A stretch of 64,000 nt of DNA from contig CAYQJB010000001.1 in the NCBI GenBank assembly GCA_964417855.1, positions 38,709 to 102,708 on the forward strand, in the 5' to 3' direction. This document shows positions 213-54,156 of this stretch, piece after piece (position 1 is the stretch's first letter; every line of letters begins with the position of its first letter). Under the pieces are notes generated by a model. It was not told the DNA's origin, ran no database searches, and saw only the letters and a program-made list of their open reading frames with translations. This DNA is from an uncultured Candidatus Saccharibacteria bacterium. GTDB taxonomy: Bacteria; Patescibacteriota; Minisyncoccia; Phycocordibacterales; CAIZLB01. The position numbers and the translations under genes were made by a program.

Positions 213-240
213 GGGGTCAGGCACCATGGTGCCTGACCCC
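213..240. repeat. perfect 28-bp palindrome GGGGTCAGGCACCATGGTGCCTGACCCC, copy 1 of 4
   Basis: Read directly. Flanked TT..AAA. Identical or near-identical copies at 43242-43269, 44111-44138 and 53423-53450. Confidence 0.9.
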
Positions 241-252
241 AAAAAACAAAAA

Positions 253-1515
253 CTAGTCCCACAGTACAGCTTCAATACACATAAACAAAGGAATTTCCTT
301 TTTACATCTTTTATCAGCTAATTCTCTTGTCCCTGGATTACTCTTCTTGTGACTTGTCCATTCCTCAATTCTTAGTATTGCAAAACCTGCATTAGCAAGC
401 CACTTACTATAAACCTGCATCGGTCTATGGAATGATGTTGTATAAGATTTCTTTCTTCTATCTTTTTCTCCTGGATGCATATCAATTTTTATAACTTCTT
501 CACTCATGTAACTATAAACAACTCTTCCGTATCTTCCTGCCTTTTTACCATTAACAATAGTGTACGATGGGTCTCCCTCAGGTCCCCCACCTTCTGCATC
601 AAAATACCAATCAGAGTTCTTTGGAACACGGAAACATGGGTGATTTAACACAATTACCATTTTTCCCTTTGGCTTTAATATCTTTGCAGACTCCTTAAGA
701 GCTATATCAAATTCCTCAATGTTCTGTGCCGCTAGTATGCACATTGCAGAATCACATGACTTCTCTTCAACTCCGGCTGAAATCATTTTATGAGCTGGTG
801 AAACTATGAAGGCGTCATTTTCTGATATCTTATCCTTGAATCTATTTTTAGCAACCGTAATTAACTCGTTAGAAATATCCACCCCTACTACATTTGCCCC
901 CTTATCAATCATTGATTCAGAAAAAAGACCTTGTCCACAAGCAACATCCAGAACCTTCTGTCCCACTGTAGGATTAATGATTCTTATAATATTAGGCATG
1001 ATTATTTGCTTCTGATATGAATCACTGTCAGCTAGATAGTTATCGTACCACTCAGCTTCATTTCCCCATGATGTGTTATTTTTTGAAGCAACAACAGGAG
1101 TACCAATTGAAGCGTCTCTTGAAACACGTGCGTGCGCAATCCTTGGAGCATAGTCAGGTGCCATTCTAGTTGAAATCTTTGGAATAATTCTAGGCGCACT
1201 ACTTGGAGCATGCTTTGTTATTCCTCTTGAAGCATATGAAGTTACAAACTTAGGATTGTTTGAATAACGGCCCGATGAACCTTTTGCACCACGTGATGGT
1301 GAGTACCTTGAGGTACTTGGAGAGTATCTAGGTGCTCTGGGTGCAGACAATATAGGAGCACTGCTTGGAGCCCCTCTTGAGGCGCTTCTGGACGTACTTT
1401 TTGGCTTTGATCTCTGGAATCCCTTATTGTTTGGTTTGTTCATATATATATTGGTATTTGTGTAATTTAGTCCAGCAATCATACAATATAAATGAGGAAA
1501 TAGCAACAGGTACAA
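253..1515 (-). CDS. class I SAM-dependent methyltransferase with Ser/Ala/Pro/Arg-rich N-terminal low-complexity extension; true start probably the internal Met (MNKPNNK...)
   Basis: LDVACGQGLFS glycine-rich SAM-binding motif I. N-terminal approx 150 aa contains SAPR, APR and RYSPSTSRYSPSRG repeats. Confidence 0.7.
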   Translation of the reverse strand: MYLLLFPHLYCMIAGLNYTNTNIYMNKPNNKGFQRSKPKSTSRSASRGAPSSAPILSAPRAPRYSPSTSRYSPSRGAKGSSGRYSNNPKFVTSYASRGITKHAPSSAPRIIPKISTRMAPDYAPRIAHARVSRDASIGTPVVASKNNTSWGNEAEWYDNYLADSDSYQKQIIMPNIIRIINPTVGQKVLDVACGQGLFSESMIDKGANVVGVDISNELITVAKNRFKDKISENDAFIVSPAHKMISAGVEEKSCDSAMCILAAQNIEEFDIALKESAKILKPKGKMVIVLNHPCFRVPKNSDWYFDAEGGGPEGDPSYTIVNGKKAGRYGRVVYSYMSEEVIKIDMHPGEKDRRKKSYTTSFHRPMQVYSKWLANAGFAILRIEEWTSHKKSNPGTRELADKRCKKEIPLFMCIEAVLWD

Positions 1516-4685: not shown

Positions 4686-5030
4686 CTAGTCCTCTTTCTT
4701 TACCTTCTTCTTTCCCCCAGCTCTAGATTTACGTGTAGTCCTTTCTTCCCCATCCCCAGCAGATCCATTACCCGATCTAATAAAAGATCCAAAAACAAAC
4801 TTCATTAGATTCATTGCCTTGCTTCCCTGCTCCTCAATAGACTCTCTAACCATCAAAACATCTTCCATAATACGGTCAGCCTCTTCTTTTAATTTTCTAG
4901 ATGTATATTCCAAATGCCTAGCTATTTGTATAATGTAATATAAAAATATTATTAGCAGCGATGTAAGGACCACCATTGCTAATGTTGTCATAAAGAAAAA
5001 TATATCGGCATGAACAAAAGATGAATTCAT
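4686..5030 (-). CDS. hypothetical small membrane protein
   Basis: ORF with N-terminal TM helix and basic C-terminus. Confidence 0.35.
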   Translation of the reverse strand: MNSSFVHADIFFFMTTLAMVVLTSLLIIFLYYIIQIARHLEYTSRKLKEEADRIMEDVLMVRESIEEQGSKAMNLMKFVFGSFIRSGNGSAGDGEERTTRKSRAGGKKKVKKED

Positions 5031-5031: not shown

Positions 5032-5760
5032 TTAATTTAAATTAAGTATTTTTTTAAAGGTTGAACCGTGTGCTACAGATATTTTACCATACTTATTTGG
5101 TTTGGACATACCAGAATCGAACATAAGAAATATAAATAAAATAAAAAGGGCTGTATCATAAAGAAACATTCCTATGGGTGCGTATTCTGAAGATGGAAAA
5201 ACAAACATTCCAAGATATAGAAAACTTATAATTCCCGGTAGTTCCAAATCATGAAGTCTTCTTGTAATCAATGAAAGGAAAATTAAAGTAAAGGGTGCAA
5301 ACATAATTGGCATATACAATAACAAAATATTATTTGTATCACTTGCAACTAATTGACCAAGAAGTCCCCATGCCTCCGGTGACATAGCTTGAATAAAGCT
5401 AGCTACAATTATTAATACACTGAAGAAAAGGCTGAATAAAAAAAGTACAGAAATTGTAAAATCTTTTTTATTCAGTCTTCCAGCAAATAGCCCAAGATGA
5501 GCATGCTGATCTTCTGCTGACGGTGATTTTTTATTCTTGACCACACCCTTATTCTTGTTAAGTGTCGGTAAAAAGTTATTAGCTGCAGCAACATCCTGAT
5601 GTAATGTTCTGTGGGTTTTCTTGGTATTACTGATACCTTCTTCTATCTCTGAGTCAGAAAAACCAGCACTTTTTAAAGACACGTTTATCTCGTCTATAGT
5701 GTTAGCTTTCTCAAGCTTTCTAATTATAAAATTTTCAATTCCTTCCTTTGATTTAGTCAC
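5032..5760 (-). CDS. DUF805-like inner-membrane protein with N-terminal soluble domain
   Basis: Multi-TM C-terminal half with ITRRLHDLELPG, resembling the RRLHD signature of DUF805. Confidence 0.4.
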   Translation of the reverse strand: MTKSKEGIENFIIRKLEKANTIDEINVSLKSAGFSDSEIEEGISNTKKTHRTLHQDVAAANNFLPTLNKNKGVVKNKKSPSAEDQHAHLGLFAGRLNKKDFTISVLFLFSLFFSVLIIVASFIQAMSPEAWGLLGQLVASDTNNILLLYMPIMFAPFTLIFLSLITRRLHDLELPGIISFLYLGMFVFPSSEYAPIGMFLYDTALFILFIFLMFDSGMSKPNKYGKISVAHGSTFKKILNLN

Positions 5761-5844
5761 AATATTATATTACTTTATTAAACCAGCATAAACTCATTTA
5801 TCCCTAGTCATTATAATTAGTATACTATGATTATTTTAAAATAA

Positions 5845-5886
5845 AACAGCCGGGTGTGAACTAATTAGTTCACACCCGGCTGTTTA
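5845..5886 (-). terminator. rho-independent terminator: AAACAGCCGGGTGTGAAC-TAATTA-GTTCACACCCGGCTGTTT plus T-rich tail on the minus strand
   Basis: Perfect 18-bp inverted repeat immediately downstream of 5924-6319. Confidence 0.7.
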
Positions 5887-5923: not shown

Positions 5924-6319
5924 CTATTTCTTTGAAGGTAATCTATATTTTGTTGAATCAACTGAAACAAGAACAAAAAGTAAGGCTATAATAACAATAT
6001 CAAACTCCCACCCACCTACTCCAGAAAAACCAGCATTCCATACGAATATTTTTGAAAATATCGCTCCAAGTATCACTACTCCCAGAACTGATCCAGCTAA
6101 TCTTATTTTTGTACCTAACAATATAAATACCGCTGACGCTAATTCTACAAGACCTACTATTGTCATAAATATTGACCCTTGTCCGCCTAGCTTAGTAAGT
6201 GCGTGATAAATAAAGACACATCCGATAACGATACGTGCAAACATCATTGCCTCATGAGCATACTTTCCCACCTGAGTTATTTCATGTATTTTGTTATTCA
6301 TTTTTTTTAATTCGTTCAT
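5924..6319 (-). CDS. DoxX-family membrane protein
   Basis: Four predicted TM helices, approx 130 aa, DoxX-like hydrophobic pattern. Confidence 0.45.
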   Translation of the reverse strand: MNELKKMNNKIHEITQVGKYAHEAMMFARIVIGCVFIYHALTKLGGQGSIFMTIVGLVELASAVFILLGTKIRLAGSVLGVVILGAIFSKIFVWNAGFSGVGGWEFDIVIIALLFVLVSVDSTKYRLPSKK

Positions 6320-9517: not shown

Positions 9518-9863
9518 ATTCTATATAATACAAAGCTCCTAATACAAAGCTCCACAGGATACTACATATATTACTACGTATAATAAAGTATCTAATTTCA
9601 AATAGCTACCAAGAGCACAAGTTTGAATATTTAGAATTCTGTCAGAAATCAAAACAAGCCAGGTTGAACAACCTTATTATTACCCTTGACAATAAACATA
9701 TTCCATAATATAATATGAAAAGAGTTACCGCCGAATACTCCACTAGGTAAAAGGGTGTCATCGAACCCGAGTCACCTGTGTGGGTTACTCGTTTGACATC
9801 TGGGCTTGTGCCACGTCACCTGAAAGTGATGAAAAAGTACTTAGATTCTAGGCATACACAAAA

Positions 9864-10487
9864 ATGACGACTAACCAAAAAAAACTGATTGAAAAGACAG
9901 GCGGACTATTTGGGAGGATCAATGCTGTTGTGCACCCAAATGACAAAGGCATTATCTTCAAGGTAAATGCGGAAGACTGTTTGCAAGAGGCAAGAAGCTG
10001 GAACCAAATCAAAATTGTCCTGTTGATGATTACTTCATTAGCAATTGCAGCTGTGATTGTGGACTTTGGTCTGCCGTTGTGGTATTTGCTGCCTGGCACC
10101 ATTATCATTGGAACGATGATGGGCAAGTTCGATAAAAAGAACAACAAAATGAGGCTCATCATCGGCCTAGCCAAGAAGTGGTCTCCTAATCGGAGAAAAC
10201 TTTTGCAGCTTACGAAGGGGGTCACCATTCCCGCTGTACAGCAGGAATATACTGACGACGCCGACCTGCGTGCCTACCTAATGGAACCACTGTTCAAGAC
10301 GATTGCAAATGCAATCGCCTACAAGGTGGTCAAAATTGAGAGTCTGACTGGTGAATCAAAACACCCCAAGGAAGACAAGAAACGAAAGGAACTGAATGAG
10401 TTGGCTGGGGCCTTCAATATGTCAATTCCGTGGACGGAGATCTTCAAGGAATCCGTTAGTATATTCGGGAAGCGTGAGAGGATTTAA
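9864..10487 (+). CDS. hypothetical protein with two TM helices; GC-richer than surroundings
   Basis: ORF. Local GC approx 43-50% by hand count against approx 32% background. Has its own GC-rich terminator. Confidence 0.5.
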   Translation: MTTNQKKLIEKTGGLFGRINAVVHPNDKGIIFKVNAEDCLQEARSWNQIKIVLLMITSLAIAAVIVDFGLPLWYLLPGTIIIGTMMGKFDKKNNKMRLIIGLAKKWSPNRRKLLQLTKGVTIPAVQQEYTDDADLRAYLMEPLFKTIANAIAYKVVKIESLTGESKHPKEDKKRKELNELAGAFNMSIPWTEIFKESVSIFGKRERI

Positions 10488-16656: not shown

Positions 16657-16702
16657 TAGGTCAGGCGATTTTGGTCAAAGACCTAAATCGTGCGCCTAAC
16701 CT
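16657..16702. repeat. degenerate composite palindrome: GGTCAGGCGATTT / GGTCaaaGACC / AAATCGtgCGCCTaACC
   Basis: Shares the GGTCAGGC..GCCTGACC arms with the 28-bp palindrome family. Confidence 0.5.
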
Positions 16703-21239: not shown

Positions 21240-21282
21240 GACTCAATTTCTTTCTATGTTTGTTTTGTTTTCTGCGTTTTGC

Positions 21283-21328
21283 GGTCAGACACACGATTCA
21301 GGTCTTCGACCAGAATCGCCTGACCCCA
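21283..21328. repeat. degenerate composite palindrome GGTCAGacacaCGATTCa-GGTCttcGACC-aGAATCGCCTGACCCC
   Basis: Read directly, between pyrC and pyrD. Confidence 0.5.
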
Positions 21329-34979: not shown

Positions 34980-35891
34980 ATGAAAAACAAAATCGAAAAC
35001 ACTAGGGTTAAGCAAATTGGGAATATCATTCTTCAAAACCTTGTTCCACAGGCAATACAAATAATTCAAGATGAATGTCATGACCTGACTATAATCAAGA
35101 AGGTTGGCTATGATGGAGTGAAGCCTGACCTTGCAACTAATGGTGACAGAAAAGCACAGGAAATGTACATGCGAGAAATCGCCAAACACTTCCCTGACTT
35201 TGGAATCATCGCCGAGGAAGATGGGGTTGCCTTTGATGGCAAAGATAATGGCGAGGATGGAGAGAAGGGCGAAGATATATATTTCACTATTGATCCACTA
35301 GATGGAACCAAGGCGTATGAACGTGGTGCAGGACAAGGTGTTGGAACAATGATTGCCCTCTGTAAAGACAACGATGTCATTGCAGCTTACATCGGCGACG
35401 CAAACACTGGTGAGACATACGGTTTTGCAGACATGGAAAAAAGAGGCGCAGCCATAAGGCAAAGATTTGGTGTAACAACCAACTTAAAGCCCAGAACTGA
35501 TAAACCTCTAGCTGAACAATATGTACTCTTGCGTGAAATGCCTCGCAAGCAACCCGAGTTAATTAATAAAATGATTAACGATATAACAGCAGGTGGGCTA
35601 TTTAAGGACGCTGAGGTTACAGGAGGAAGTATTGGTACAGCTTTTGCAAGGTTGTGGAAGGGAGAGGTTGGAGCGATGGTTCTTCAGCCAGGATTCAATA
35701 CACCATGGGATCTTGCTCCAACACTTGGTATTAGCCGTAGGCTTGGCTACAAGTTTTTCAAACTTTTAGATGGTAAACTCATTGAGAATGAGCCAATGCT
35801 TACAAAGACTGTTGTTGAGAAACCATACACAGAAATTGTTGTCCATGAAGCTCATGAAAAGGAATTGATGGAGTGGTTGAAGGTTAATTAA
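34980..35891 (+). CDS. inositol monophosphatase/FBPase-family phosphatase
   Basis: DPLDGT and WDLAP metal-binding motifs. Confidence 0.6.
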   Translation: MKNKIENTRVKQIGNIILQNLVPQAIQIIQDECHDLTIIKKVGYDGVKPDLATNGDRKAQEMYMREIAKHFPDFGIIAEEDGVAFDGKDNGEDGEKGEDIYFTIDPLDGTKAYERGAGQGVGTMIALCKDNDVIAAYIGDANTGETYGFADMEKRGAAIRQRFGVTTNLKPRTDKPLAEQYVLLREMPRKQPELINKMINDITAGGLFKDAEVTGGSIGTAFARLWKGEVGAMVLQPGFNTPWDLAPTLGISRRLGYKFFKLLDGKLIENEPMLTKTVVEKPYTEIVVHEAHEKELMEWLKVN

Positions 35892-35905: not shown

Positions 35906-35943
35906 GCAATGCCCCGGCGCCAGAATGGCGCCGGGGCATTGCA
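35906..35943 (+). terminator. GC-rich perfect palindrome GCAATGCCCCGGCGCC-AGAAT-GGCGCCGGGGCATTGC
   Basis: Read directly, 15 nt after the stop of 34980-35891. Confidence 0.6.
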
Positions 35944-36009: not shown

Positions 36010-36903
36010 TTAGAGATTATCCATCCCTGGCCTTCTGATTAATGTAGAATAATTCTCAGCATACCCAGTTTTTTGAGAAATATCTGTAATGTAAAATTTC
36101 TTTCTAGCCTGATCTATAGTAAGTTTTGTATCGATTAACCCACTATCTAACGCCATCTTATCGGCATGACTTGTAAGCACTACTTGCCAGTCAAAAGACG
36201 TTAACATTCCTGGCCAAAGTTTGTTCACATGTCCTGCAATACTTGATGTACAATTTGCAAAGATAGAGTTGTACCATGCAGGGTGAATAGATAACTCGTT
36301 CATTCTATTTAACATATCCACAAGCAATAACTTACCATCTTTTTGATTAGCTTTAAGTGGGTATATATAAATGTCAGCCTTGAATATATTTGCACGAACA
36401 TAAATAGCATCCCTCTCGTCCGTTGCAATATACATCAATGGAAAAGTACGAATAGTTCCATTCACCGGGCTGTATTTTTGACCCTTTGTTAATCTTCCTT
36501 CAATTGTAATTACCAAAAATGAATTATCTTCAAATTCAAATGATAAAAAGGTATGAGCAAAAGAACTATCTGGACTGAATGGAGCTGTTATGTACCAAAC
36601 TTTTTTTAACTTATTCAAATCATAGGTTTTATCATAGTACACCTCAATAGTTGGGTTCCCATTAGCATCATATTGAAAATTTCTGACATTTTTGACCGTG
36701 ACTAAATTATCTTTAAATTCAGCTGTAGACAGTACTTTTAAGGTATCCTTCCAGTCTCCATCAGTTGGAACTTTTTTTGTTGCTTGCCAAATGATAAAAA
36801 CAGCGAGGATTATACAAATTAGAGACAGGGTGAATTTTAGTATTTTTCTGAATTTGAAGCCCTTCCTGATTTTTGCCATGTGAGATGGTTTCGTGTTTTT
36901 CAT
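36010..36903 (-). CDS. DUF4105-like membrane-anchored protein
   Basis: AHTFLSF and YNSIFANCTS resemble DUF4105 signatures. Confidence 0.45.
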   Translation of the reverse strand: MKNTKPSHMAKIRKGFKFRKILKFTLSLICIILAVFIIWQATKKVPTDGDWKDTLKVLSTAEFKDNLVTVKNVRNFQYDANGNPTIEVYYDKTYDLNKLKKVWYITAPFSPDSSFAHTFLSFEFEDNSFLVITIEGRLTKGQKYSPVNGTIRTFPLMYIATDERDAIYVRANIFKADIYIYPLKANQKDGKLLLVDMLNRMNELSIHPAWYNSIFANCTSSIAGHVNKLWPGMLTSFDWQVVLTSHADKMALDSGLIDTKLTIDQARKKFYITDISQKTGYAENYSTLIRRPGMDNL

Positions 36904-42382: not shown

Positions 42383-42454
42383 AGCCGACAGTGAGAATCG
42401 AACTCACGATCTCTTCCTTACCAAGGAAGTGCTTTACCACTAAGCTATAACGGC
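42383..42454 (-). tRNA. tRNA-Thr (anticodon GGU), CCA not encoded
   Basis: Cloverleaf: CTTCC-TTGGTAA-GGAAG anticodon arm, GTGAG-TTCGATT-CTCAC T-arm, one U-U mismatch in acceptor stem. Confidence 0.7.
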
Positions 42455-42505
42455 TTTGATACCAAATGAGTAACAACCAGAACCCCGATGGACTCTGACT
42501 ATACC

Positions 42506-43219
42506 CTACTCATCAATCTCCTGCTCCTCTTCAGTCTCAATATGATGATTACTTGGAATAATATCATCATCGTCAGAAAATGCACGGTCGAGCCATGCGT
42601 GCATGATATTCGAGCTTGCTGGCACAAGATTGAATAGAATTGCTAAAATAAAGAGTACTTTGGCCACCAGGGGACTCCAGAAACAGACGATGATTGCAAG
42701 AATAGCTGTTGCAACAGGAAACAGAATTCTAATATAACCACTTCTTCTATCGATTTTTGTTATATCAACAGTGTCGATTTCCGGATCCTTTTCAATATGC
42801 CTCCTCATTAAATATAAGCTCAATCCTATCAAAATAACATTTATCGCATAAACAATTACAGCTATTTTACTATCTGGATATCTTCCAAGTAAGGTTGTTG
42901 AAAAAGGGACTAGGATAATTAATAGGAAAAATAATGCGTTATAACATGCAAGGTATACGGTTAGAGTTTTGGCGTAAACAGAAGATATATAGTGGTGAGC
43001 ACGCCAGTATGTAAACAAAAGAGAGAATGACATTATGAAACTTAGAAAGATTGGAAGTAATTCTTTTAGAGAAGTAAGCAGAAGTTGTTCAGATGCTCCA
43101 TCTGCTAAAATTGGGACCTTAATTTCAAAAGCCAGAAGCGTCATAACAATTGCAAATATACCATCTGCAAGCCCATCTAATCTCTGACGTCGCATATGAA
43201 TTGGTCTCTTTGTAATCAT
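42506..43219 (-). CDS. DUF1211/TMEM175-like membrane protein
   Basis: RLDGLADGIFAIVMTLLAFEI N-terminal signature plus approx 6 TM helices. Confidence 0.5.
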   Translation of the reverse strand: MITKRPIHMRRQRLDGLADGIFAIVMTLLAFEIKVPILADGASEQLLLTSLKELLPIFLSFIMSFSLLFTYWRAHHYISSVYAKTLTVYLACYNALFFLLIILVPFSTTLLGRYPDSKIAVIVYAINVILIGLSLYLMRRHIEKDPEIDTVDITKIDRRSGYIRILFPVATAILAIIVCFWSPLVAKVLFILAILFNLVPASSNIMHAWLDRAFSDDDDIIPSNHHIETEEEQEIDE

Positions 43220-43241
43220 GTAATTATTTTAGCATGACTTT

Positions 43242-43269
43242 GGGGTCAGGCACCAGCGTGCCTGACCCC
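43242..43269. repeat. 28-bp palindrome copy 2 (GGGGTCAGGCACCAGCGTGCCTGACCCC)
   Basis: Read directly. Confidence 0.9.
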
Positions 43270-43343
43270 AAATTAAAAATAGCGCAGCCCAATTCTAGGT
43301 CACACTATTTTTATGAAGCAAATAATTTGTTCAACCCTTCCCC

Positions 43344-44090
43344 CTAGTCTCTTTGTCTCTCCATGTAAACAGATATTGTTCTTCTTTTGTAAGCTTTACC
43401 GTCTCTTATATGTTTATAAGATTTAATCATCTTATGAATTTTAAAATATGGTGAAAACAATTCTATAATTTCATCATCTGTCCAGACGTGCTCATAAACA
43501 TCAATTCTAGGATGTATATATGAATTCAACTCCCCCGCTGGATTTTCCTTAATCAATCTTATTGCATGAGCGTCGGCGTCAAGCACAAATGTTTTTAGAA
43601 ACGCCCAACCATACGGCTTAACAACTCTTGCAATTTCTTTAACATAATTTTTACGCTCTTCATCTCTAAGAAAATGACTTGTCATCATGTCTAGGAACAT
43701 ATCAACAGTTCCGTCCTCTGTAGGTATTGGATCTGATAGGTCCTGAACATAAAATAGAATTCTTTCTGCTTTAGGGATTTTTGCATCTGGATTCACTTTT
43801 GTAACACCCTTCTCTTTTGCCATATCCTTTGCTTGTGAAATAGCAGTTCCAGAAATATCTATTCCAATACCCCTCATGTTATATTCAGCACAAAGTGGGA
43901 CGAGATTTCTACCATTTCCGCACCCCGCATCAACAATTAATCCATTCTTTGGAAAAGGAGGCCACTCTGAGTTTCTGGTCACCCATTTTTCAAAAGTAAT
44001 TAAATCAGAAGAAGGCTCAGTGGACATTGCTAAATGCTCCCCTGTTTTATATTCCTTATTCCAAAACGCTGCTGAATTTTTTTTAGTCAT
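43344..44090 (-). CDS. class I SAM-dependent methyltransferase, flanked on both sides by the 28-bp palindrome
   Basis: LIVDAGCGNGRN motif I. Confidence 0.65.
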   Translation of the reverse strand: MTKKNSAAFWNKEYKTGEHLAMSTEPSSDLITFEKWVTRNSEWPPFPKNGLIVDAGCGNGRNLVPLCAEYNMRGIGIDISGTAISQAKDMAKEKGVTKVNPDAKIPKAERILFYVQDLSDPIPTEDGTVDMFLDMMTSHFLRDEERKNYVKEIARVVKPYGWAFLKTFVLDADAHAIRLIKENPAGELNSYIHPRIDVYEHVWTDDEIIELFSPYFKIHKMIKSYKHIRDGKAYKRRTISVYMERQRD

Positions 44091-44110
44091 GATATTTGTT
44101 TGTTTGATTT

Positions 44111-44138
44111 GGGGTCAGGCACCACGGTGCCTGACCCC
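44111..44138. repeat. 28-bp palindrome copy 3, extended to TTTGATTTGGGG...CCCCAAATCAAA
   Basis: Read directly. Confidence 0.9.
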
Positions 44139-44146
44139 AAATCAAA

Positions 44147-45667
44147 CTATGAGAACAAAGCATAGATTGTAGCCAAAGCTGTAACACCCATAAACACTAC
44201 CGTAACCCACCCAACAACATTAGTCAATTTTTTATTTCTATTTTCACCCATCACATCCTTTCTAGAGCTTAATCTAACGATAAAATACAATATTACAGGG
44301 GCAACAATACCATTAAGAACGGCAGAGTAGATTAATGCCTTTATAGGGTCTAAACCAATAAAGTTAAGCCCAATACCCACTATTACAGCAAGTGATATAA
44401 CTCCATAAAAAGCCCTAGCCTCTTTTAGCTTCCTATTCAAACCAAACTTCCATCCAAAACTCTCAGATACAGCATATGCTGCTGAGCCTGCAAGAACTGG
44501 CACAGCAAGTAGTCCAACACCAATGATACCTATCGTAAACAGCAAATAAGCAAAATCTCCAGCAAAAGGACGAAGTGCAGCAGCAGCATCAGCAGCAGTG
44601 CCAATATTCGTTACACCATGTGAAAATAGAGTTGCAGAACAAACTGCGATAATAAAAAACATCGCAGCATTTGAAATAAACATTCCCATCCAAATATCTA
44701 CTCTCATTTTTTTAATATCCTCTGGAGTAGAAATTGTCATCAATGGTTCCGTCACAACTGATACAAAAGAAGGGTCAGTTAAAGGAACGGTCTCTAAGGT
44801 TTGAACATTCTGATTATTTTGTAAATCTAAAATTCTTTGAGCAAGTTGTTTTTCTTCTATCTCCTGAGAAGTCTGCCAGAAGAATAGATATGGAGAAATT
44901 GTTGTTCCTAATATTCCACAAACCAAAAGTATTTGATCTTTTGTAAAATCAAAATGTGGAACAACAGTATAATATAATACCGCTGACCAATCTATTTGAA
45001 CAAAGAATGCCGTAATAACATATGAAAGTAGCACAAGCGCTAAATATTTTAAATACCTAGCATACTTTCCATAGCTCATAAATATTTGCATCAATAGACC
45101 ACTCACACCAAAGAAAATAACAGTTGGACCAAAAGGAAAATAAGGAAAAATTAATTGAAGCGCCTTAGTCATTGCACCAAAGTCTGCACCAATATTGAAA
45201 ATATTTGCAGCAAGCAATAGAAATGTACAAATATAAATAGCAGTTCTTGAATGATACTGTCTTATGTTTGCAGCAAGGCCTTGCCCTGTAATCATACCAA
45301 TTCTAGCGCACATCTCTTGAACTGTTGCCATTAAAGGAAAGGTAAAAAGAGAAAGCCAAATTAATTTGAAACTATACTGAGCGCCGGTTTGAGAATATGT
45401 AGCAATTCCTGATGGATCATCATCAGAAGCACCCGTAGTTAGTCCTGGGCCAAGCATACGCCAAAAGTTTTTTGCTTTCTTTTCAACCACAACAGCTTCA
45501 TGGCCTGCAGCTCTTACCCCCTCTCCTGCTACATGAATAGTTTTTCCAATTACATGACCAGTTGCATGTAAGGCATCTTTCATTCTATGTACATCATTTT
45601 GTTCATCATTATTCACAACAATATTATACACTATTAGATATTTTTTGAACAAGCAGTTATAATACAT
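44147..45667 (-). CDS. mntH: NRAMP-family divalent metal (Mn2+/Fe2+) transporter with long N-terminal extension
   Basis: GPGLTTGASDDDPSGIATYSQTGAQYSFKLIWLSL...QEMCARIGMITG matches the NRAMP consensus. Confidence 0.75.
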   Translation of the reverse strand: MYYNCLFKKYLIVYNIVVNNDEQNDVHRMKDALHATGHVIGKTIHVAGEGVRAAGHEAVVVEKKAKNFWRMLGPGLTTGASDDDPSGIATYSQTGAQYSFKLIWLSLFTFPLMATVQEMCARIGMITGQGLAANIRQYHSRTAIYICTFLLLAANIFNIGADFGAMTKALQLIFPYFPFGPTVIFFGVSGLLMQIFMSYGKYARYLKYLALVLLSYVITAFFVQIDWSAVLYYTVVPHFDFTKDQILLVCGILGTTISPYLFFWQTSQEIEEKQLAQRILDLQNNQNVQTLETVPLTDPSFVSVVTEPLMTISTPEDIKKMRVDIWMGMFISNAAMFFIIAVCSATLFSHGVTNIGTAADAAAALRPFAGDFAYLLFTIGIIGVGLLAVPVLAGSAAYAVSESFGWKFGLNRKLKEARAFYGVISLAVIVGIGLNFIGLDPIKALIYSAVLNGIVAPVILYFIVRLSSRKDVMGENRNKKLTNVVGWVTVVFMGVTALATIYALFS

Positions 45668-45766
45668 ATGTAGCCTAAAATGAAATTTTTCTGAATATTA
45701 GACGTAATAATCATTATGAAGGCTAAAGGTGACAGCTTTCTGTTTTAACTAAACATAAATATAAAT

Positions 45767-46660
45767 ATGAATATAAAAAAAATATCATTAGTAACGTCTA
45801 GCCTTGCATTAGTTGCAAGTATGATGATAGCCTCTTCATCTTCTGCAGACAGCATTACTAATACTAGACCCCAAGGAATGACGGGTCGAGGCGTGGCGCC
45901 TTATGGCGTAAACAAAAACGCAGTAAGACCTGTAGCTATGGGGGCAGTTACATCCATTAATGGATCAACAATTACAATCGCAGGACGTCAGGTATCATTT
46001 AGTGAAAGAAGTAGCTCATCAACTCCATCGTCAGCAGTAGTAACCTATACTGTTGATGCAACAAACGCTGTTGTAACTAAAGGAAACGCTTCAAGCACAG
46101 TTTCAAGTATTGTAGTTGGAGATAACATTGTTGTTATGGGTACCGTAAGTGGAACAAACATTGTTGCCACAACAATTTTTAATAGTGTAAGAGGTCCGGC
46201 AAATGGACAAGGTAAAGAGCTGCAAAACAGCGGTCAAGATAGTAGACAAAACGGTGGACAAAAAACTGGAAATAGAAATCCAAGAAACGGAACCTCAACG
46301 CAACCAGGAATTATTGGTAATGGGCAGCCGGTTGTGGCGGGAAAAATTGTCACTATAAATTCAAACTCTATCACAATTACAACCTCTGGTAATCTTACAT
46401 ATACAATCGATGTAGCAAACGCAAAAATTACACTAGGGCAGGCCATCAGTGATATATCAAAACTAACTATTGGAGATATGGTTGTTGTTCAGGGTACAAT
46501 AAACGGATCATCTGTTACAGCTTCAACAATAATGGATAGAGGAAATTCTAATGGGCCATCCGGAACAGCAACAGGCTCTGCAAACACAAATCCTACTAAT
46601 GGTGTAAAGGGATTTTTTGGTGGAGTAGGACAATTCTTCATGCACATGTTTGGATTCTAA
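45767..46660 (+). CDS. secreted protein with two internal repeats and Gly/Asn/Gln-rich linker
   Basis: Signal peptide. Repeated ITI..G..TYT(V/I)D..NA..T.G modules. Confidence 0.45.
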   Translation: MNIKKISLVTSSLALVASMMIASSSSADSITNTRPQGMTGRGVAPYGVNKNAVRPVAMGAVTSINGSTITIAGRQVSFSERSSSSTPSSAVVTYTVDATNAVVTKGNASSTVSSIVVGDNIVVMGTVSGTNIVATTIFNSVRGPANGQGKELQNSGQDSRQNGGQKTGNRNPRNGTSTQPGIIGNGQPVVAGKIVTINSNSITITTSGNLTYTIDVANAKITLGQAISDISKLTIGDMVVVQGTINGSSVTASTIMDRGNSNGPSGTATGSANTNPTNGVKGFFGGVGQFFMHMFGF

Positions 46661-46682
46661 TCTAAATTTTTATCGATTAAAT

Positions 46683-46714
46683 AAAAAAGGACCGCATTCT
46701 GCGGTCCTTTTTTT
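46683..46714. terminator. bidirectional terminator AAAAAAGGACCGCATTCTGCGGTCCTTTTTTT
   Basis: Read directly, between convergent genes. Confidence 0.75.
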
Positions 46715-47345
46715 AATTCTTATTCCTATTTACCCACCAAGCATCATCCTTATCACCAAACCACCAATGATCAGATTCTATATTTAATATTTTCTCTGCC
46801 AAGTCTTTTGCTTCATCCGTCTTTAGTCTACTTATTGTAGATTTAACCCAAGTCCTTGCTCTCTCATTACCAATATCAATTTGCTCTTTTAGTGAAATTA
46901 AAAATTCTAGATTATCTGCATCTTTTGCAAGCTGTGATTCATATGTAGTTCTTTCATGATATTCATGCAACAACTCCCCTATTTTATTTCCAAACGGCAA
47001 TGAATCAACCAAATCTTTTTCAGCCTTCTCCTCTAGTCTTTCTGTATATTTTTGATGAACATAATTTAAATCAGAAATTCTAGATTCTGTTATGTCGTGG
47101 AATTGACACATTTGAACGATTCTTCCAACATCAACTTTTCCATTTATGTGACCTAGGCAAAATCCAATATAAACAACTCTGTTAATATGTTCAGCAACAC
47201 TTTGTTGTCCGCTGCCCAAAAACGCAGACCAACTACGAGGTGTTTTTGCTAAGATTCCAACTTCATATAAGAAGTCTACTACGGGGTCCACTGAATTCTC
47301 TGGAATGTTAGTTATGATGTTTTTCATATAATTAGATACTAGCAT
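46713..47345 (-). CDS. HD-domain phosphohydrolase (YfbR-like 5'-nucleotidase family)
   Basis: H..R...HD..E HD-domain motif. Confidence 0.6.
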   Translation of the reverse strand: MLVSNYMKNIITNIPENSVDPVVDFLYEVGILAKTPRSWSAFLGSGQQSVAEHINRVVYIGFCLGHINGKVDVGRIVQMCQFHDITESRISDLNYVHQKYTERLEEKAEKDLVDSLPFGNKIGELLHEYHERTTYESQLAKDADNLEFLISLKEQIDIGNERARTWVKSTISRLKTDEAKDLAEKILNIESDHWWFGDKDDAWWVNRNKN

Positions 47346-47436
47346 ATCTGAGCCAAATTTGTGTACTGCTCCAAATTTTTAACTTCTATATTACGCTCCT
47401 AACACAGCCCTCATGTTCCAGAATTTTAGCAGAAAT

Positions 47437-47480
47437 AAAAAACCTCTGGGTCACATATAATGTGCCCCAGAGGGTGTTTG
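47437..47480 (-). terminator. terminator CCTCTGGG-N15-CCCAGAGG plus a T-run on the minus strand
   Basis: Read directly, downstream of 47511-47810. Confidence 0.6.
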
Positions 47481-47510
47481 AGAATAGAATCATATTGTAA
47501 TGATTGGTAA

Positions 47511-47810
47511 TCACCAGCCAAACGGGTTAGCGTATGGATTGTAGTATGGTTCCACGTAGTGTCCACGGTAGTAGCCACGGCGGCCATAGCCACCGTACGG
47601 AACAGTCGGACGGTTCATGGAATTGTTGAGGACAGCACCCCCTACCGCAGCAGCAGCAACACCCAATGCGGCCATTCCGACAGCATTGCCCATCTTGGCA
47701 TTAGCTTCAGTTTGGCGAGCGCGCTGTTCGGGAGTACCACTTGGCATGGCGCAGTTTGTGAAAACAAGCGACACCATCGTAACGACAACAGTCAACAGTT
47801 TAGTTTTCAT
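47511..47810 (-). CDS. lipoprotein with Gly-zipper and Gly/Tyr/Arg-rich tail; GC-rich gene
   Basis: Signal peptide plus lipobox FTNC. Approx 50% GC. Promoter TTGACA-N17-TAGCAT duplicated upstream of the next gene. Confidence 0.5.
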   Translation of the reverse strand: MKTKLLTVVVTMVSLVFTNCAMPSGTPEQRARQTEANAKMGNAVGMAALGVAAAAVGGAVLNNSMNRPTVPYGGYGRRGYYRGHYVEPYYNPYANPFGW

Positions 47811-47904
47811 TTGTTCTGATTCTGGTTTTGGTTTTCTGACATCAGGAAAGGAGTATTCCTCCGGTCCTCACTAATGCTATTCCTATCATATTTTTTGTCA
47901 ATGA

Positions 47905-48318
47905 TCATCTATTGTTATGACCGTGTCCACCTTGGTGTTGATTGCCCCCAAAGTTTTGGTGCTGACCATATCCACCTCCTCTTCCTGGCGTGTTGTATAC
48001 ACCACGGTTGTAACTACCGTTGTAACCACTATATCCATGATTACCGCCAACACTGTGACCGTAACCACTTGTATATCCACGATCTCCATAACTTGATCCG
48101 TAGTTATGGTTATCGTAACGATTATAGTATCCACCTCCGCGATAATAATTACGATATGGTTCGTACCCATAATACTGGGGACTTTCCACAATCACCTCCT
48201 CGACATACCCAGGTGTGTATGCTTGACTGCTATAATCAATCATCGGCACACAACTCGTCAAAAGAAATGCTGGTGGAGCAAGGACAAGTAATGCTGTAAG
48301 AAACAATTTTGCATTCAT
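47905..48318 (-). CDS. lipoprotein with Gly/Tyr/Asn/Arg-rich low-complexity domain; GC-rich gene
   Basis: Signal peptide plus lipobox LTSC. Same promoter architecture as 47511-47810. Confidence 0.5.
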   Translation of the reverse strand: MNAKLFLTALLVLAPPAFLLTSCVPMIDYSSQAYTPGYVEEVIVESPQYYGYEPYRNYYRGGGYYNRYDNHNYGSSYGDRGYTSGYGHSVGGNHGYSGYNGSYNRGVYNTPGRGGGYGQHQNFGGNQHQGGHGHNNR

Positions 48319-48488
48319 ATTCTTTGTGATTCTAGGGTTCTGTATTTTAGTTCAGGGTTCTGATGCAAGGAATCGATAACATCTTCACATCTGTCTTAAT
48401 GCTATTCTTCTCGTGATTTTTGTCAATGCAGAAAAATAATCACAAAAAAAAGAGCCCTATTGCTAGGACTCTTTTTATTGTTTCTTTG

Positions 48489-48560
48489 CGCGGCTGATGG
48501 GTGCTGACCCCACGGCCTCTCCCGTGACAGGGGAGTGCTCTACCGTTGAGCTACAGCCGC
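48489..48560 (-). tRNA. tRNA-Asp (anticodon GUC), CCA not encoded, unusual T-loop GTCAGCA
   Basis: Cloverleaf: GCGGCTG/CAGCCGC acceptor, GCTC-AACGGTA-GAGC D-arm, CTCCC-CTGTCAC-GGGAG anticodon arm. Confidence 0.6.
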
Positions 48561-49159
48561 ATTTTCATGAATCCTTCGAAAATAAGCTTTTTTCTGTCCA
48601 GATAAAGCTTACTCGTCGTATTATACATGATTTTATAAATTTTCAAAGAGTCTCGGGTACTATACTGTAATCTACTATAATTTCCACTTCTAAGGTTAAA
48701 TAAACTTCCACCGTCCAAACCTAAAGAATTAAGCATATTAAATAGATTATTTAAGAACATTTTACTAGCAGAAGTAAAGGCTACAAACATCACGGATGTT
48801 GGTTTTTTTCTTGTTTTATTAGTATGCCCTACCCAGATATTTCCATCCCCATCAAAATACCCTCTAATAAAATCTCCTTCATATTTTTTTGGAATGGTAG
48901 GAATATCCATTCTTAATGACTTATTTGGGGTAAGTCCAAGGAGTACAAGGTCATTAAACATTTCTTTGCTTCCAATTTGGACCCTATATACAGACCCCGT
49001 TTCTGATTTTATTTCAGATATTTTATGTGGTAATTTCATTACTTCAGCAATAGAAATAAGAAGTTCCCTGTCAGCCGTATAGAAAGAGATAAAATGAGTA
49101 TTTCTTTTAGTTTTAATTATGTTACCATCTGCAAATAAAAAACCTAAAATATAAGCCAT
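48551..49159 (-). CDS. double-motif LAGLIDADG homing endonuclease; stop lies inside tRNA-Asp 5' end
   Basis: LGFLFADGNI and IRGYFDGDGNIW dodecapeptide motifs. Confidence 0.75.
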   Translation of the reverse strand: MAYILGFLFADGNIIKTKRNTHFISFYTADRELLISIAEVMKLPHKISEIKSETGSVYRVQIGSKEMFNDLVLLGLTPNKSLRMDIPTIPKKYEGDFIRGYFDGDGNIWVGHTNKTRKKPTSVMFVAFTSASKMFLNNLFNMLNSLGLDGGSLFNLRSGNYSRLQYSTRDSLKIYKIMYNTTSKLYLDRKKLIFEGFMKMRL

Positions 49160-49267
49160 GTTAGGCGACCATTTTTTGAAAAAGTTGTTGTTGTTAATTT
49201 TAAATACTGGAGTGGTATTATTATATATTCGAAAAAATTAATGACAATTGCGAACATTAAAAAAGTG

Positions 49268-49341
49268 TGTCGACGGGAGGGATCGAACCTCCGACCTTGG
49301 GCTTATGAGTCCCACGCTCTAACCAACTGAGCTACGTCGAC
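49268..49341 (-). tRNA. tRNA-Met (or tRNA-Ile lysidine), anticodon CAU, elongator-type
   Basis: Cloverleaf: perfect acceptor GTCGACG/CGTCGAC, canonical D-arm and T-arm (GGAGG-TTCGATC-CCTCC), loop CTCATAA. Confidence 0.8.
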
Positions 49342-49423
49342 GTACAGACACTATAATACAAAAACACCTAATTTTCAAGCTTTATAGAAGGCTCTATTTT
49401 ATGCATTTTTTACGATTAATATC

Positions 49424-49460
49424 TACCCAGCAAAAAAGCCCCTATTAGGAGCTTTTTTTT
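49424..49460. terminator. bidirectional hairpin AAAAAAGCCCCTATTAGGAGCTTTTTTTTTT between the two CAU tRNAs
   Basis: Read directly. Confidence 0.6.
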
Positions 49461-49468
49461 TTAAATTG

Positions 49469-49539
49469 TTGCGGAGTCCGGAATTGCACCGGATCTACAA
49501 GGTTATGAGCCTCGCGTGCGACTGTAACACTCCCCCGCA
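49469..49539 (-). tRNA. atypical tRNA-like gene with CAU anticodon: 7-bp acceptor, 4-bp D-stem with 7-nt D-loop lacking GG, T-loop TGCAATT
   Basis: Hand-folded TGCGGGG..(GTGT-TTACAGTC-GCAC)..CGAGG-CTCATAA-CCTTG..TCCGG-TGCAATT-CCGGA..CTCCGCA-A. Confidence 0.4.
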
Positions 49540-49647
49540 ATTTGTATCTATATCAAATATGAATACCTTCGTACTATATAACATATTGTAATAAAAGACA
49601 ATCCTTTTCAGGTTTTAGTCTAAAATACCAAATAGCAATAAGTCAGC

Positions 49648-50430
49648 CTAGATAAAATAGAATTCAGCAAAAACCTTTCTGTATAAATCTATTGTGTTTT
49701 GAGCTTGCTCATGTGACAACTCATATGAAGACCCTTCATGAGCAATGGTGTTTCTAACTTTATGAGCCCTCCATGCCAAATCAAGTGTATTAAAGTCTGA
49801 GGACTCAATTGCTTTTAATTTGTCTGCGATAGTGTCTCCATCGTAACCCATTTGATCAAGCATTTCATATAGCAAAATATCAGCTTCAAGAATTGCCATT
49901 CTCCAATCTGAAGAATTTGTAGATGCTATGTGACCTAAAATATCTTCCCATTTTTTATTTTCTCCAGATGGATTAAGTACAGGCTTACCGGCAGACAAGT
50001 CTGTACCACCTTCAGACACACCTTCTCCAACACCCCCCTGCGATACACCACTCTGTGAACCCGCAGTACTTGAAATACTTGCGATATAACCTTTTGGTAA
50101 ACTAGTTTTATACAAAGTAACAATTTCCTTTTGCTTATTTTTTAAATAAAAGGACGCAAGAAGGAAAAATAGAATTAAAAAAACAGAGAAAAATATCACC
50201 ATATTAAATAGTGAATTGAATGAGTCCAGAGCCTGATTTATAAAACCAGTTGAGTCTGTAGTCAACTTTCCTTGTCCGTACCCCAAATTCTCTAAAACTC
50301 TTTTCCCGGTTGCAAGATAAATAAGAACAATAAAAGCGACAACTGAAAATATCTTAATTTCCAATGCGAACATATGGTCTGAAGCCCCAGCACTTGCTGG
50401 TTTTTTTGCATCTGGTTTTTTATCTGCCAT
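49648..50430 (-). CDS. membrane protein with C-terminal DUF4145 (HEPN-superfamily, R-x4-H) domain
   Basis: Two TM helices. C-terminal LDLAWRAHKVRNTIAHEG...DLYRKVFAEF fits the DUF4145/HEPN RN..AH pattern. Confidence 0.5.
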   Translation of the reverse strand: MADKKPDAKKPASAGASDHMFALEIKIFSVVAFIVLIYLATGKRVLENLGYGQGKLTTDSTGFINQALDSFNSLFNMVIFFSVFLILFFLLASFYLKNKQKEIVTLYKTSLPKGYIASISSTAGSQSGVSQGGVGEGVSEGGTDLSAGKPVLNPSGENKKWEDILGHIASTNSSDWRMAILEADILLYEMLDQMGYDGDTIADKLKAIESSDFNTLDLAWRAHKVRNTIAHEGSSYELSHEQAQNTIDLYRKVFAEFYFI

Positions 50431-50551
50431 TGTATTGTAATTCTATCATACTAGATGAGCAAAGAGAAAGACTAATTAGAATATGTACAAATTTTCGATT
50501 AAATTCCCCACCAACATACAGTATTACTGCCTAAAGTAGAATTAGTTTCCC

Positions 50552-51895
50552 TTACTGGGGGGTGCTGGTGCCGGTGTCAACACAGGTGTTAGTTACATAG
50601 TCAAAATATGTGGTCTCCGTTGCTCCAGCACAGTAAGGTTCAACAGACGTCTTTCTTTGATCAACCGAGGCTGCGCATGTACCATTGGCAGTATTTTCCG
50701 TTCCGTCTGTAAGGAACACCAGACCTTCAGGACAAACAGCCTCAGTAGTACAATCCGTATCCGCTGAATCCACATCATTATCCAAATCATTATCTATACC
50801 GTCATGACATGTTGTTAAAGTATTTTCAGGACGTGATAGAAAAGGGTGAGCACCCGAGTGCAAAAAACCGGCACAATCTGCATCATAATTATCACTAGCT
50901 CCATCACCATCATTATCGATATGATCGTTACAAAGATCTGCTGTATTCTCCTGTGGAGATGGAGAAGTAATGGTATTTACGATTGGAGCAAAGACAGTCT
51001 CATAGAAGCTTCCTCCTGAACCATTAGAAATAGCAGGGGCACCATTTGTAATACCAGCAACGGCATCAACGGAGTCGCTTATATTGGTAGATGCCTCTAA
51101 ACCATCATGTCCTGCAGGGAAGGGTCTCTCAGAAACTTCAGATTCACCAGCTCCAACAGTATACTCCACAACACCATACGTGTACCCATTTTCGTTTTCG
51201 CCTCCATTATTCAAAACATCAATAGCCGCAGGACTCGTGTCCCCTAAAATAAAACCAGTTCTCTTGTTTATAATACCACTTGATTCTGACCCACCTCCAC
51301 TTACTCCAACTTGAGCTGTCAAAATAGAGTAAGTTGCAAACGTTGTGTCAGTTTTAATTGCCTTATAACAAATCCCTGCTGCATCATCATCATATGGGTG
51401 AACGGGTACGGCTGGCATGTATTTTTTTGCTACCAATGCCGCCGCCGCATTATCAAAGTTTACACAAAGCTGTGTCGTACTATGTGTGGCTGATGCATCA
51501 GCCTTTTTAATAAAAAACGAAAGTTTGTTTGCCCAATTTGCTCTTTGTTCATTGTTGTGTCCAGCCGTTCTCTGCAAACCCAAAACCTTATTTTCCTTTT
51601 GATTATTCAGCGCAACGGTAGTTCCATCTGTTGGCGGAAATGTATGTGTATCATTATAATAAAGATCTGCAGCTATTCTAAACTGCCTCAAGTCCTCTGT
51701 TATCTTTGTATCATTAGTTTTCATTCTTGTGCTAGCAAGATTATTTAGAACAATTGATGACATTAGTGCGATTATCGCAACAACAACGAGAAGCTCAATT
51801 AAAGTGAAAGCTCTTTCTCTATTAGTTTTAGTTTTCATCATACTTATATTATACAGCTTTATCGAAAAAAATCGACAACATAACGCCAAATACAA
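50552..51895 (-). CDS. type IV pilin-like protein with C-terminal thrombospondin-type-3-like Asp repeats
   Basis: Prepilin N-terminus RAFTLIELLVVVAIIALMSSIV. C-terminal DNDGDGASDNYDADC and DNDLDNDVDSADTDC. Confidence 0.6.
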   Translation of the reverse strand: MYLALCCRFFSIKLYNISMMKTKTNRERAFTLIELLVVVAIIALMSSIVLNNLASTRMKTNDTKITEDLRQFRIAADLYYNDTHTFPPTDGTTVALNNQKENKVLGLQRTAGHNNEQRANWANKLSFFIKKADASATHSTTQLCVNFDNAAAALVAKKYMPAVPVHPYDDDAAGICYKAIKTDTTFATYSILTAQVGVSGGGSESSGIINKRTGFILGDTSPAAIDVLNNGGENENGYTYGVVEYTVGAGESEVSERPFPAGHDGLEASTNISDSVDAVAGITNGAPAISNGSGGSFYETVFAPIVNTITSPSPQENTADLCNDHIDNDGDGASDNYDADCAGFLHSGAHPFLSRPENTLTTCHDGIDNDLDNDVDSADTDCTTEAVCPEGLVFLTDGTENTANGTCAASVDQRKTSVEPYCAGATETTYFDYVTNTCVDTGTSTPQ

Positions 51896-51906
51896 TCAAA
51901 CAATGA

Positions 51907-53412: not shown

Positions 53413-53422
53413 ATTTTTTGTT

Positions 53423-53450
53423 GGGGTCAGGCACCATGGTGCCTGACCCC
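53423..53450. repeat. 28-bp palindrome copy 4 (identical to copy 1)
   Basis: Read directly, between gatC and gatA. Confidence 0.9.
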
Positions 53451-53456
53451 AAATCG

Positions 53457-53765: not shown

Positions 53766-53870
53766 GTTTGTTATAGTAGCATTATTGGGACGATTTTCAA
53801 ATGTCGAGGTCTGGTGAGACTTAGGCCTATCTTCATAAAATGTAGTACATTTTATTAAAATTAAACTCTA

Positions 53871-54128: not shown

Positions 54129-54156
54129 TAGTAAGGTTCATTATGACGACTAGAGA

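Follow-up and report, generated by a model that had tools for sequence, protein, structure and literature searches.

Intergenic palindromes of an ultra-small bacterium as probable REP-like repeats of a Y1 transposase system

A family of intergenic palindromes

The window analysed here is the whole 64,000-nucleotide stretch at positions 38,709 to 102,708 of contig CAYQJB010000001.1 (assembly GCA_964417855.1), and the element under study is a GC-rich palindrome of 28 bp that recurs between its genes. The window has a GC content of ~36%, contains six tRNA genes, and carries almost all of its genes on the minus strand; Pfam matches identify among them gatC, gatA, an NAD-dependent ligase gene, type IV pilus genes, an Nramp gene and a TMEM175-like channel gene. 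An identical GatA protein is encoded on the 365-kb contig JBAXXP010000001.1 (GCA_037127815.1) and on contigs of one lake metagenome series, and the nearest GatA homologues are named Paceibacteria or Parcubacteria. Judged from its proteins, the host is an ultra-small, Paceibacteria-like bacterium of the Patescibacteria (the candidate phyla radiation, CPR).

A pattern search of the whole window for GGGGTCAGGCACC-NN-GGTGCCTGACCCC, with up to three mismatches allowed, returned exactly four matches, against 0.00 expected from 100 dinucleotide-preserving shuffles of the window. The original prediction, made from the letters of this DNA alone, had reported four copies with perfect stems that vary only in the loop, and this description is confirmed. 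Each copy has the form GGGGTCAGGCAC-NNNN-GTGCCTGACCCC, a perfect 12-bp stem around a 4-nt centre, and the four differ from one another at the centre only, which on the plus strand reads CATG, CAGC, CACG and CATG in coordinate order. All four lie between minus-strand genes:

213-240, copy 1: GGGGTCAGGCAC-CATG-GTGCCTGACCCC, 12 nt past the stop codon of a class-I S-adenosylmethionine (SAM) methyltransferase gene (253-1515, minus strand)
43242-43269, copy 2: centre CAGC, between a methyltransferase gene (43344-44090, minus strand) and the TMEM175-like channel gene (42506-43219, minus strand)
44111-44138, copy 3: centre CACG, between the Nramp gene (44147-45667, minus strand) and the same methyltransferase gene (43344-44090, minus strand)
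53423-53450, copy 4: centre CATG, 6 nt past the stop codon of gatC (53457-53765, minus strand) and 10 nt before the ATG of gatA (51907-53412, minus strand)

Copy 1 is also present in the metagenome locus L143 (such loci are given L numbers throughout), and its palindromy extends over 210-243 to include TTT and AAA. Copy 2 has the most diverged centre. In copy 3 the palindromy reaches 44102-44147, giving arms of 22 nt, through either chance or selection.

The placement originally described, intergenic between co-directional genes with a 5' flank of TT(T) and a 3' flank of AA(A), was found for all four copies. As the unit is its own reverse complement, T residues precede and A residues follow the stem on both strands, and no T- or U-tract follows it in either direction. 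A consensus terminator scan of 42400-54200 called none of the three palindrome copies in that range. Together with the separate terminators found beside several copies, these results bear out the claim that the palindromes are not classical intrinsic terminators. Rfam at gathering thresholds matched only tRNAs over the window and none of the palindromes. The hairpins are very stable: as RNA, the copies fold with -28 to -40 kcal/mol (z = -6.7 to -9.3), the lowest energy being that of copy 3 (-40.1 kcal/mol), and the 34-mer folds as DNA with -17.9 kcal/mol.

An exact-pattern scan of 241 million metagenome records retrieved 24 stretches, nearly all of them from the same series of lake samples in which the window's genome occurs; the palindrome family is therefore restricted to one lineage. 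After de-duplication, ~26 unique copies remained in DNA of the window's population, and three more came from an 82%-related lineage. The density is ~1 copy per 16 kb in the window, which was not selected for its copies, and is similar on a 206-kb contig; dozens of copies are present per genome of roughly 1 Mb. The consensus is TTT-GGGGTCAGGCAC-CATG-GTGCCTGACCCC-AAA.

All of the ~26 unique copies are intergenic, and 17 of the 26 lie 4-12 nt past a stop codon. Some copies have convergent neighbours, two have divergent ones (L133 955, L145 1854), and several directly adjoin a separate canonical terminator made up of a hairpin and a T-run. Start codons that adjoin palindromes are not preceded by a visible Shine-Dalgarno motif. 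The conserved flanks consist of T at positions -1 to -3 and A at +1 to +3, and beyond these the complementarity of the flanks is at chance level among the 26 copies, which marks the 22-nt arms of copy 3 as an individual peculiarity. No direct-repeat target duplication was found at any boundary offset in these 26 copies, as is expected for Y1 transposition.

Variation is concentrated at the centre. Among 29 unique copies, 12 of 116 centre positions are changed, compared with 4 of 696 arm positions (Fisher p = 5e-8), a difference of ~20-fold that must be read with the caveat that most of the extra copies were retrieved by a pattern requiring exact arms. One master sequence dominates, the centre being CATG in 19 of the 29. 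Solitary half sites show no excess over chance: seven weak 12-mer matches (1-2 mismatches) occur in ~380 kb, none of them in genes, and two of the seven belong to a 47-nt long variant of the palindrome.

A Y1 transposase gene and its inverted repeats

On L133, the 206-kb contig from the same sample, three palindrome copies lie within 1.2 kb and bracket an open reading frame (ORF) for a protein of 198 aa:

L133 290-886, minus strand: Y1 transposase ORF, flanked by palindrome copies at 258-285 and 955-982

One copy lies 4 nt past the stop codon of the transposase and is the variant with a symmetric A…T outer pair, another lies 68 nt before its ATG, and the third is found 400 nt further. The 198-aa protein matches the Pfam family Y1_Tnp with E = 1.2e-15, and its best NCBIfam model is NF047646, the REP-associated tyrosine transposase (RAYT; REP, repetitive extragenic palindrome), with E = 1.9e-18 and 66.8 bits, where the curated cut-off is 80; the IS200 model gives only 21.7 bits. 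The sole match in the PDB is E. coli TnpA-REP (4ER8), and although this match is weak (E = 0.047), the alignment places HFH on the HUH motif and the tyrosine of IRYVERNP on the catalytic Y115. The motifs of the protein are NHFH, YQ and YVERNP, in which the Y…NP pattern is kept.

An identical protein is recorded at NCBI as MEI6042383.1 ('MAG: transposase', from a metagenome-assembled genome, MAG), and it has the same neighbours in all 20 contigs that carry it, which come from sample sets that also carry the window's genome. This constancy of context shows that the transposase gene is single-copy, like RAYTs, and not a multi-copy insertion sequence (IS). A tblastn search with the IS200-type Y1 protein of the relative L153 found no match in the source DNA. 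The distance between IS200 and the actual partner is too great for this, and it was the ORFs bracketed by the three clustered copies that led to the partner.

The element of L153 is of another Y1 class than the palindrome-linked one. It is a 151-aa IS200-type Y1_Tnp gene (L153 3485-4060) inserted among pilin genes of this relative, whose GatA is 79% identical, and it is accompanied by unrelated hairpins upstream (TACTAAAGCCGTCC/GGACGGCTTTAGTA) and downstream (CCACCGGAC/GTCCGGTGG).

More than 600 homologues of the 198-aa protein were found, many of them named Kaiserbacteria or Parcubacteria. The flanks of five homologues were compared, and two more distant ones are listed after them:

L157, 82% identity: the identical 28-mer on both sides of the gene, plus a third copy nearby
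L168, 59% identity: single inverted repeats, GGGGTCAGACACC … GGTGTCTGACCCT
L169, 52% identity: AAAGGGTCAGGTACCTTT at both ends
L158 (Kaiserbacteria chromosome), 55% identity: AACAGGGTCAGGTACGGTTT at both ends
L159, 55% identity: TAAAGGGGTCAGACTCCTTT at both ends
Pseudomonadota MAG homologue, 33-42% identity: GGGGTCAGGCACGTGCCTGACCCC on both sides
Guptibacillus hwajinpoensis homologue, 26% identity, with motifs NHVH, FQ and YIHLNP: GGGGGTCAGGCTCGTGCCTGACCCCC upstream

The other homologues from Patescibacteria thus carry single inverted repeats of nearly the same 12-13 nt (GGGGTCAGACACC, GGGTCAGGTACC). The arm of the 28-mer begins with GGGGTCAG, which fits the motif GGGGWSAS, and the homologues carry GGGGTCAGAC, (G)GGGTCAGGTAC and GGGGTCAGACTCC. 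As the 12-13 nt of the arm recur as an inverted repeat around homologous genes, the 28-mer can be read as a left repeat, 4 nt and a right repeat, and the arm GGGGTCAGGCAC[C], by this comparison of flanks, is identified as the terminal inverted repeat (TIR) that bounds Y1 transposase genes. In these relatives the arm stands unpaired as a single inverted repeat, and what this suggests is less a constraint on structure alone than recognition of the arm by the transposase. The selection on structure that had been predicted therefore stands only in part: the arms are conserved, but as a sequence and not through covarying pairs.

At L159, a tandem duplication (positions 9813-10000, a 134-nt repeat) comprises the left repeat and ~80 nt from the start of the transposase gene, and IS3-type integrase fragments (rve_3) lie just downstream.

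A looser genome scan, with 10-nt arms and a centre of 4-14 nt, found at least 120 loci in many phyla, two of which carry homologous transposase genes; within the 8-kb blocks that were fetched, a homologous Y1 gene was present in only two genomes. These cross-phylum GGGGTCAGGC…GCCTGACCCC hairpins lack control patterns and may include chance likeness among GC-rich hairpins. The same 10-nt arms occur in multiple copies with other centres, namely GGGGTCAGGCTTCAGCCTGACCCC in several Actinomycetes MAGs, …CACGTG… in Bacillaceae/Guptibacillus and a Pseudomonadota MAG, …TTAA… in Desulfopila, and …ACTTTAAGT… in an Acidimicrobiales MAG.

In comparison with related genomes, the palindrome copies of the window are shown to be insertions. 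In L152 and L153, whose GatA is 79-80% identical, gatC and gatA are only 3-7 nt apart with no palindrome between them, whereas in the window the spacing is 44 nt, of which the palindrome takes up 28; copy 4 is therefore an insertion. Copy 3 is absent from the orthologous spacer in both L152 and L154. At the site of copy 2, the orthologous spacer of L154 (GatA 84%) contains a half remnant, TTGCCTGACCCC, and that of L152 contains nothing. No GC-rich palindrome at all was found in the 21-kb syntenic block of L152.

These comparisons also decide the association with methyltransferase genes to which the original prediction had drawn attention. The order Nramp-methyltransferase-TMEM175 is conserved in relatives without palindromes, and most other copies adjoin unrelated genes. 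A methyltransferase cassette bracketed by two copies was therefore rejected, and the bracketing is coincidental. Both methyltransferases of the window are, moreover, class-I SAM enzymes of the small-molecule type (Methyltransf_11/25) and not DNA methyltransferases.

Two side observations concern the same spacers and gene blocks. A pair consisting of a RelB/DUF6364-like antitoxin and a YafQ/RelE-like toxin (53871-54462) lies between ligA and gatC; it is present in L154 and absent from L152 and L153, and is thus another lineage-variable insertion in the gatCA block. At 43219-43240, the sequence TAAAATAATTACATG, up to and including the start codon of TMEM175, is identical in the window, L152 and L154, while the rest of the spacers has diverged. 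It suggests a -10 element very near the TMEM175 ATG, and hence a putative leaderless or very short-leader mRNA.

In addition to the 28-mers, three copies of the 47-nt long variant were seen in total, in which the arms of the 28-mer enclose a 23-nt inner hairpin (ACGATTCAGGTCTGCGACCAGAA). Two of them, both missing from the original prediction, lie in the window:

21281-21327: degenerate long variant, arms GCGGTCAGACAC / TCGCCTGACCCC around the 23-nt inner hairpin ACGATTCAGGTCTTCGACCAGAA, intergenic, with flanks TTTT/AAAG
16658-16702: more degenerate long variant, AGGTCAGGCGA-TTTTGGTCAAAGACCTAAATCGT-GCGCCTAACCT, intergenic

The intact copy, with perfect arms, is found at L160 (~4927-4973), ~1.3 kb from the transposase gene. 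The occurrence of both intact and degenerate 47-nt copies is as expected for deletion derivatives that are born and then decay; that copies do decay follows from the degenerate long variants together with the half remnant in L154.

Interpretation and alternatives

Genes similar to RAYTs and flanked by inverted repeats that share GGGGWSAS have been named TIRYTs, and the corresponding elements TIRtrons; some of the TIRtron repeats, which are self-complementary, make up dispersed families (Di Nocera et al. 2013, PMC3733652). TIRYTs correspond to subclass 2.1 of the TnpA-Y1 transposases (Quentin et al. 2018, PMC6006769) and to RAYT group 1 (Bertels et al. 2017, PMC5581495). Subclass 2.1 is characterized by the motifs NHVH/NH[YF]H, W[EQ]/FQ and YIELNP/Y[IV]HLNP and by a C-terminal extension resembling a helix-turn-helix (HTH), and its members have a median length of 238 aa; it has a wide taxonomic spread, and no REPs were recorded for it (PMC6006769).

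The system described here shares with TIRtrons a RAYT-like Y1/HUH gene between inverted repeats whose first 8 nt fit GGGGWSAS, self-complementary flanking repeats that form a moderately abundant dispersed family, the NH[YF]H form of the HUH motif, the Y…NP tyrosine motif and a wide, patchy taxonomic spread. It differs from them in that each flank is a complete palindrome, with both repeats fused, rather than a single repeat. In addition, the host genome is only roughly 1 Mb, whereas such genes are reported to favour larger genomes, and the repeat reaches dozens of copies, unlike in subclass 2.1, for which the entry is 'REP: no' (Quentin et al., PMC6006769).

With the REP/REPIN-RAYT systems, such as E. 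coli TnpA-REP and the REPINs of Pseudomonas, the family shares short (20-40 bp), GC-rich extragenic palindromes in many copies, a Y1 gene that occurs once, looks domesticated and has the repeats on either side, the lack of target duplication, and a dominant master sequence with mutational neighbours; unlike in REPs, however, the palindrome is perfect rather than imperfect. PATEs, which are miniatures derived from IS200/IS605, resemble it in mobilisation by a Y1/HUH enzyme acting on single-stranded DNA hairpins, in the absence of target duplication and in a short conserved target. They differ in having asymmetric left and right subterminal hairpins and a multi-copy IS origin, where the present element is symmetric and its gene single-copy. 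A GC-rich hairpin soon after a stop codon is likewise a property of Rho-independent terminators, from which the palindromes are set apart by the T before and A after the stem on both strands and by the missing U-tract. The element thus appears to be REP-like in its working, and to belong by kind with the TIRYT/TIRtron systems and not with the canonical GTAG-REP family.

The palindromes are accordingly, with good confidence, lineage-restricted REP-like miniature repeats of a TIRtron system with a single-copy, RAYT-like Y1/HUH transposase. Of the roles that had been proposed for them, that of REP-like elements is thereby favoured, a RAYT-like Y1 gene being flanked by the same palindrome. They are a known kind of element in an unusual host and not a new regulatory signal, and they are probably mobile.

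If it works like IS608 TnpA and E. coli TnpA-REP, the transposase would recognise the sequence of the arm, probably on a single-stranded DNA hairpin, and would cut at the T/A-rich borders, so that the element could be moved or copied into T-rich/A-rich intergenic sites; the 4 nt of the centre would not be contacted and could drift freely. The 28-mer itself would represent the left and right repeats joined head to head around 4 nt, in effect a non-autonomous derivative of the smallest possible size. Its copies would be mainly passengers that the host tolerates, although hairpins just past stop codons may stabilise the mRNA upstream of them, reduce translation of the gene that follows, or interfere with translational coupling, for example that of gatC and gatA.

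Several observations weigh against this interpretation. The protein is shorter than the median of subclass 2.1 (198 against 238 aa), it has YQ in place of WQ/FQ, no HTH-like C-terminal domain was found by Pfam in its last ~70 residues, and its score falls short of the curated cut-off of NF047646. The palindrome lacks the 5' GT[AG]G head of REPs, its foot being TTT-GGGG paired with CCCC-AAA, and the copies are mostly singletons, with doublets of the REPIN type not the rule. The empty-site spacers of the relatives, at 79-84% identity, are too diverged to give exact insertion borders, and no presence/absence polymorphism of copies between strains was found. The remnant in L154 suggests that copy 2 is an old insertion, and yet its arms are perfect, which would fit selection, gene conversion or re-insertion better than simple neutrality. 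Finally, it is an inference, though a most likely one, that the window and the transposase contig come from the same genome, drawn from four shared sample sets, the shared repeat and a similar GC content.

A host RNA element, acting as a stabiliser of mRNA 3' ends, as an RNase processing site or as a terminator independent of a U-tract, with the link to the transposase incidental or secondary, appears improbable. It would account for the proximity of 17 of the 26 copies to a stop codon, for the high stability of the RNA hairpins, and for the fact that two single arm mismatches give G·U, and not A·C, on a transcribed strand (the mismatch at L133 1360, between convergent genes, gives G·U in one of the two transcripts). 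The copy in which the outermost pair is changed symmetrically, and the perfect arms at a site where a relative keeps only a remnant, fit it as well. However, every copy carries one and the same sequence instead of covarying stems, and homologous transposase genes are bounded by the same 12-13 nt in unpaired form, each a single inverted repeat. Copies are also found between divergent genes and beside separate canonical terminators, and one has entered the gatC-gatA spacer, although relatives keep these two genes tightly coupled. The closeness to stop codons, moreover, is what would be expected for insertions tolerated in spacers of 45-75 nt in which the start-proximal part is preserved.

Still less probable is a DNA-binding site, whether the operator of a dimeric regulator, the site of a nucleoid protein, or the core of a tyrosine recombinase with an 11-6-11 arrangement, as in dif/pdif-like sites. 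Perfect dyad symmetry around a variable centre of 4-6 bp would suit such a site, the 11-6-11 geometry fits, and for some copies the next start codon is 10-26 bp downstream. Yet the 24 arm positions are equally invariant, unlike those of regulator sites, and it is the distance to the stop codon that is tight, while that to the start codon is not fixed. The adjoining genes are functionally unrelated, and relatives lack the sites at these genes. A recombinase core consists of two inverted arms around a centre of 6-8 bp, is bound by a Xer or integrase enzyme, and typically occurs singly or brackets modules; here no integrase gene adjoins the copies examined, dozens of copies exist, and relatives without the sites show synteny for the methyltransferase gene that two copies bracket. 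Among proteins, only the Y1 transposase is specifically linked to the sequence. A promoter reading of the -35-like CTGACC in the arm was also rejected, as the promoter scan gave only weak matches, with -10 boxes inside coding sequence. Both the operator and the RNA-processing roles named in the original prediction are possible as side effects, but no evidence specifically favours either.

That the palindromes are inverted pairs of a species-specific DNA uptake sequence (DUS), like the DUS pairs of Neisseria, is very unlikely indeed. Uptake sequences are short motifs that are frequent as single copies, also within genes; such pairs are known to sit 3' of genes, and genes of the type IV pilus/competence type lie nearby in the window, but solitary half sites are at chance level in ~380 kb, ~1 copy per 16 kb is far below the density of known uptake sequences, and none lies inside a gene.

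Returning to the TIRtron interpretation, confidence is about evenly divided on a more specific form of it, in which the 28-mer consists of the head-to-head fused TIRs of a TIRYT transposon and is a minimal 28-bp element, with single-repeat relatives in sister lineages and with the 12-nt arm GGGGTCAGGYAC accompanying homologous enzymes in at least three phyla; among the reduced genomes of the CPR, it would be the first case of a REP/RAYT-type system to be described. If it is correct, the palindromes are a direct record of a REP-type family born from the ends of a Y1 transposon, and the presence of the arm GGGGTCAGGYAC in Patescibacteria, Bacillota and Pseudomonadota implies a long-conserved code of protein-DNA recognition. 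The copies of the CPR host may, in that case, stay perfect through ongoing activity or through selection.

No description of a REP/RAYT-type (TIRYT) system in Patescibacteria was found in the literature, and a literature search for the palindrome sequence gave only unrelated primer and oligonucleotide matches. The present analysis extends such systems to this group, explains a conspicuous repeat of an uncultured ultra-small bacterium without a new regulatory signal, and removes a tempting but false link to methyltransferases. To our knowledge, TIRYT enzymes have never been characterised biochemically, and the comparison of fused and single repeats defines a candidate recognition sequence of 12-13 nt for one of them (GGGGTCAGGCACC). 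The repeats probably also break metagenome assemblies, many of the homologues being found on very short contigs, and such very stable hairpins inside operons such as gatCA matter for the modelling of expression in these organisms.

Other features of the window

Two further hairpins and one free-standing ORF were noted in the window:

5844-5885: perfect 42-bp palindrome without a spacer (AAACAGCCGGGTGTGAACTAA / TTAGTTCACACCCGGCTGTTT), between ORFs at 5032-5760 (minus strand) and 5924-6319 (minus strand)
35906-35942: unique GC-rich hairpin with perfect 17-nt arms (GCAATGCCCCGGCGCCA-GAA-TGGCGCCGGGGCATTGC), between convergent genes at 34980-35891 (plus strand) and 36010-36903 (minus strand)
48551-49159: free-standing LAGLIDADG_3-like ORF (weak Pfam match), adjoining a tRNA-Asp gene (48488-60)

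The 42-bp palindrome is unique among the examined DNA of the source genome and unrelated to the 28-mer family, and it could be an operator or a terminator-like hairpin. The hairpin at 35906-35942 has no T-run on either side. Past the other end of the LAGLIDADG_3-like ORF, at a distance of 100-300 nt, lie two tRNA-Met genes (49267-49539), and the position of the ORF is conserved in relatives.

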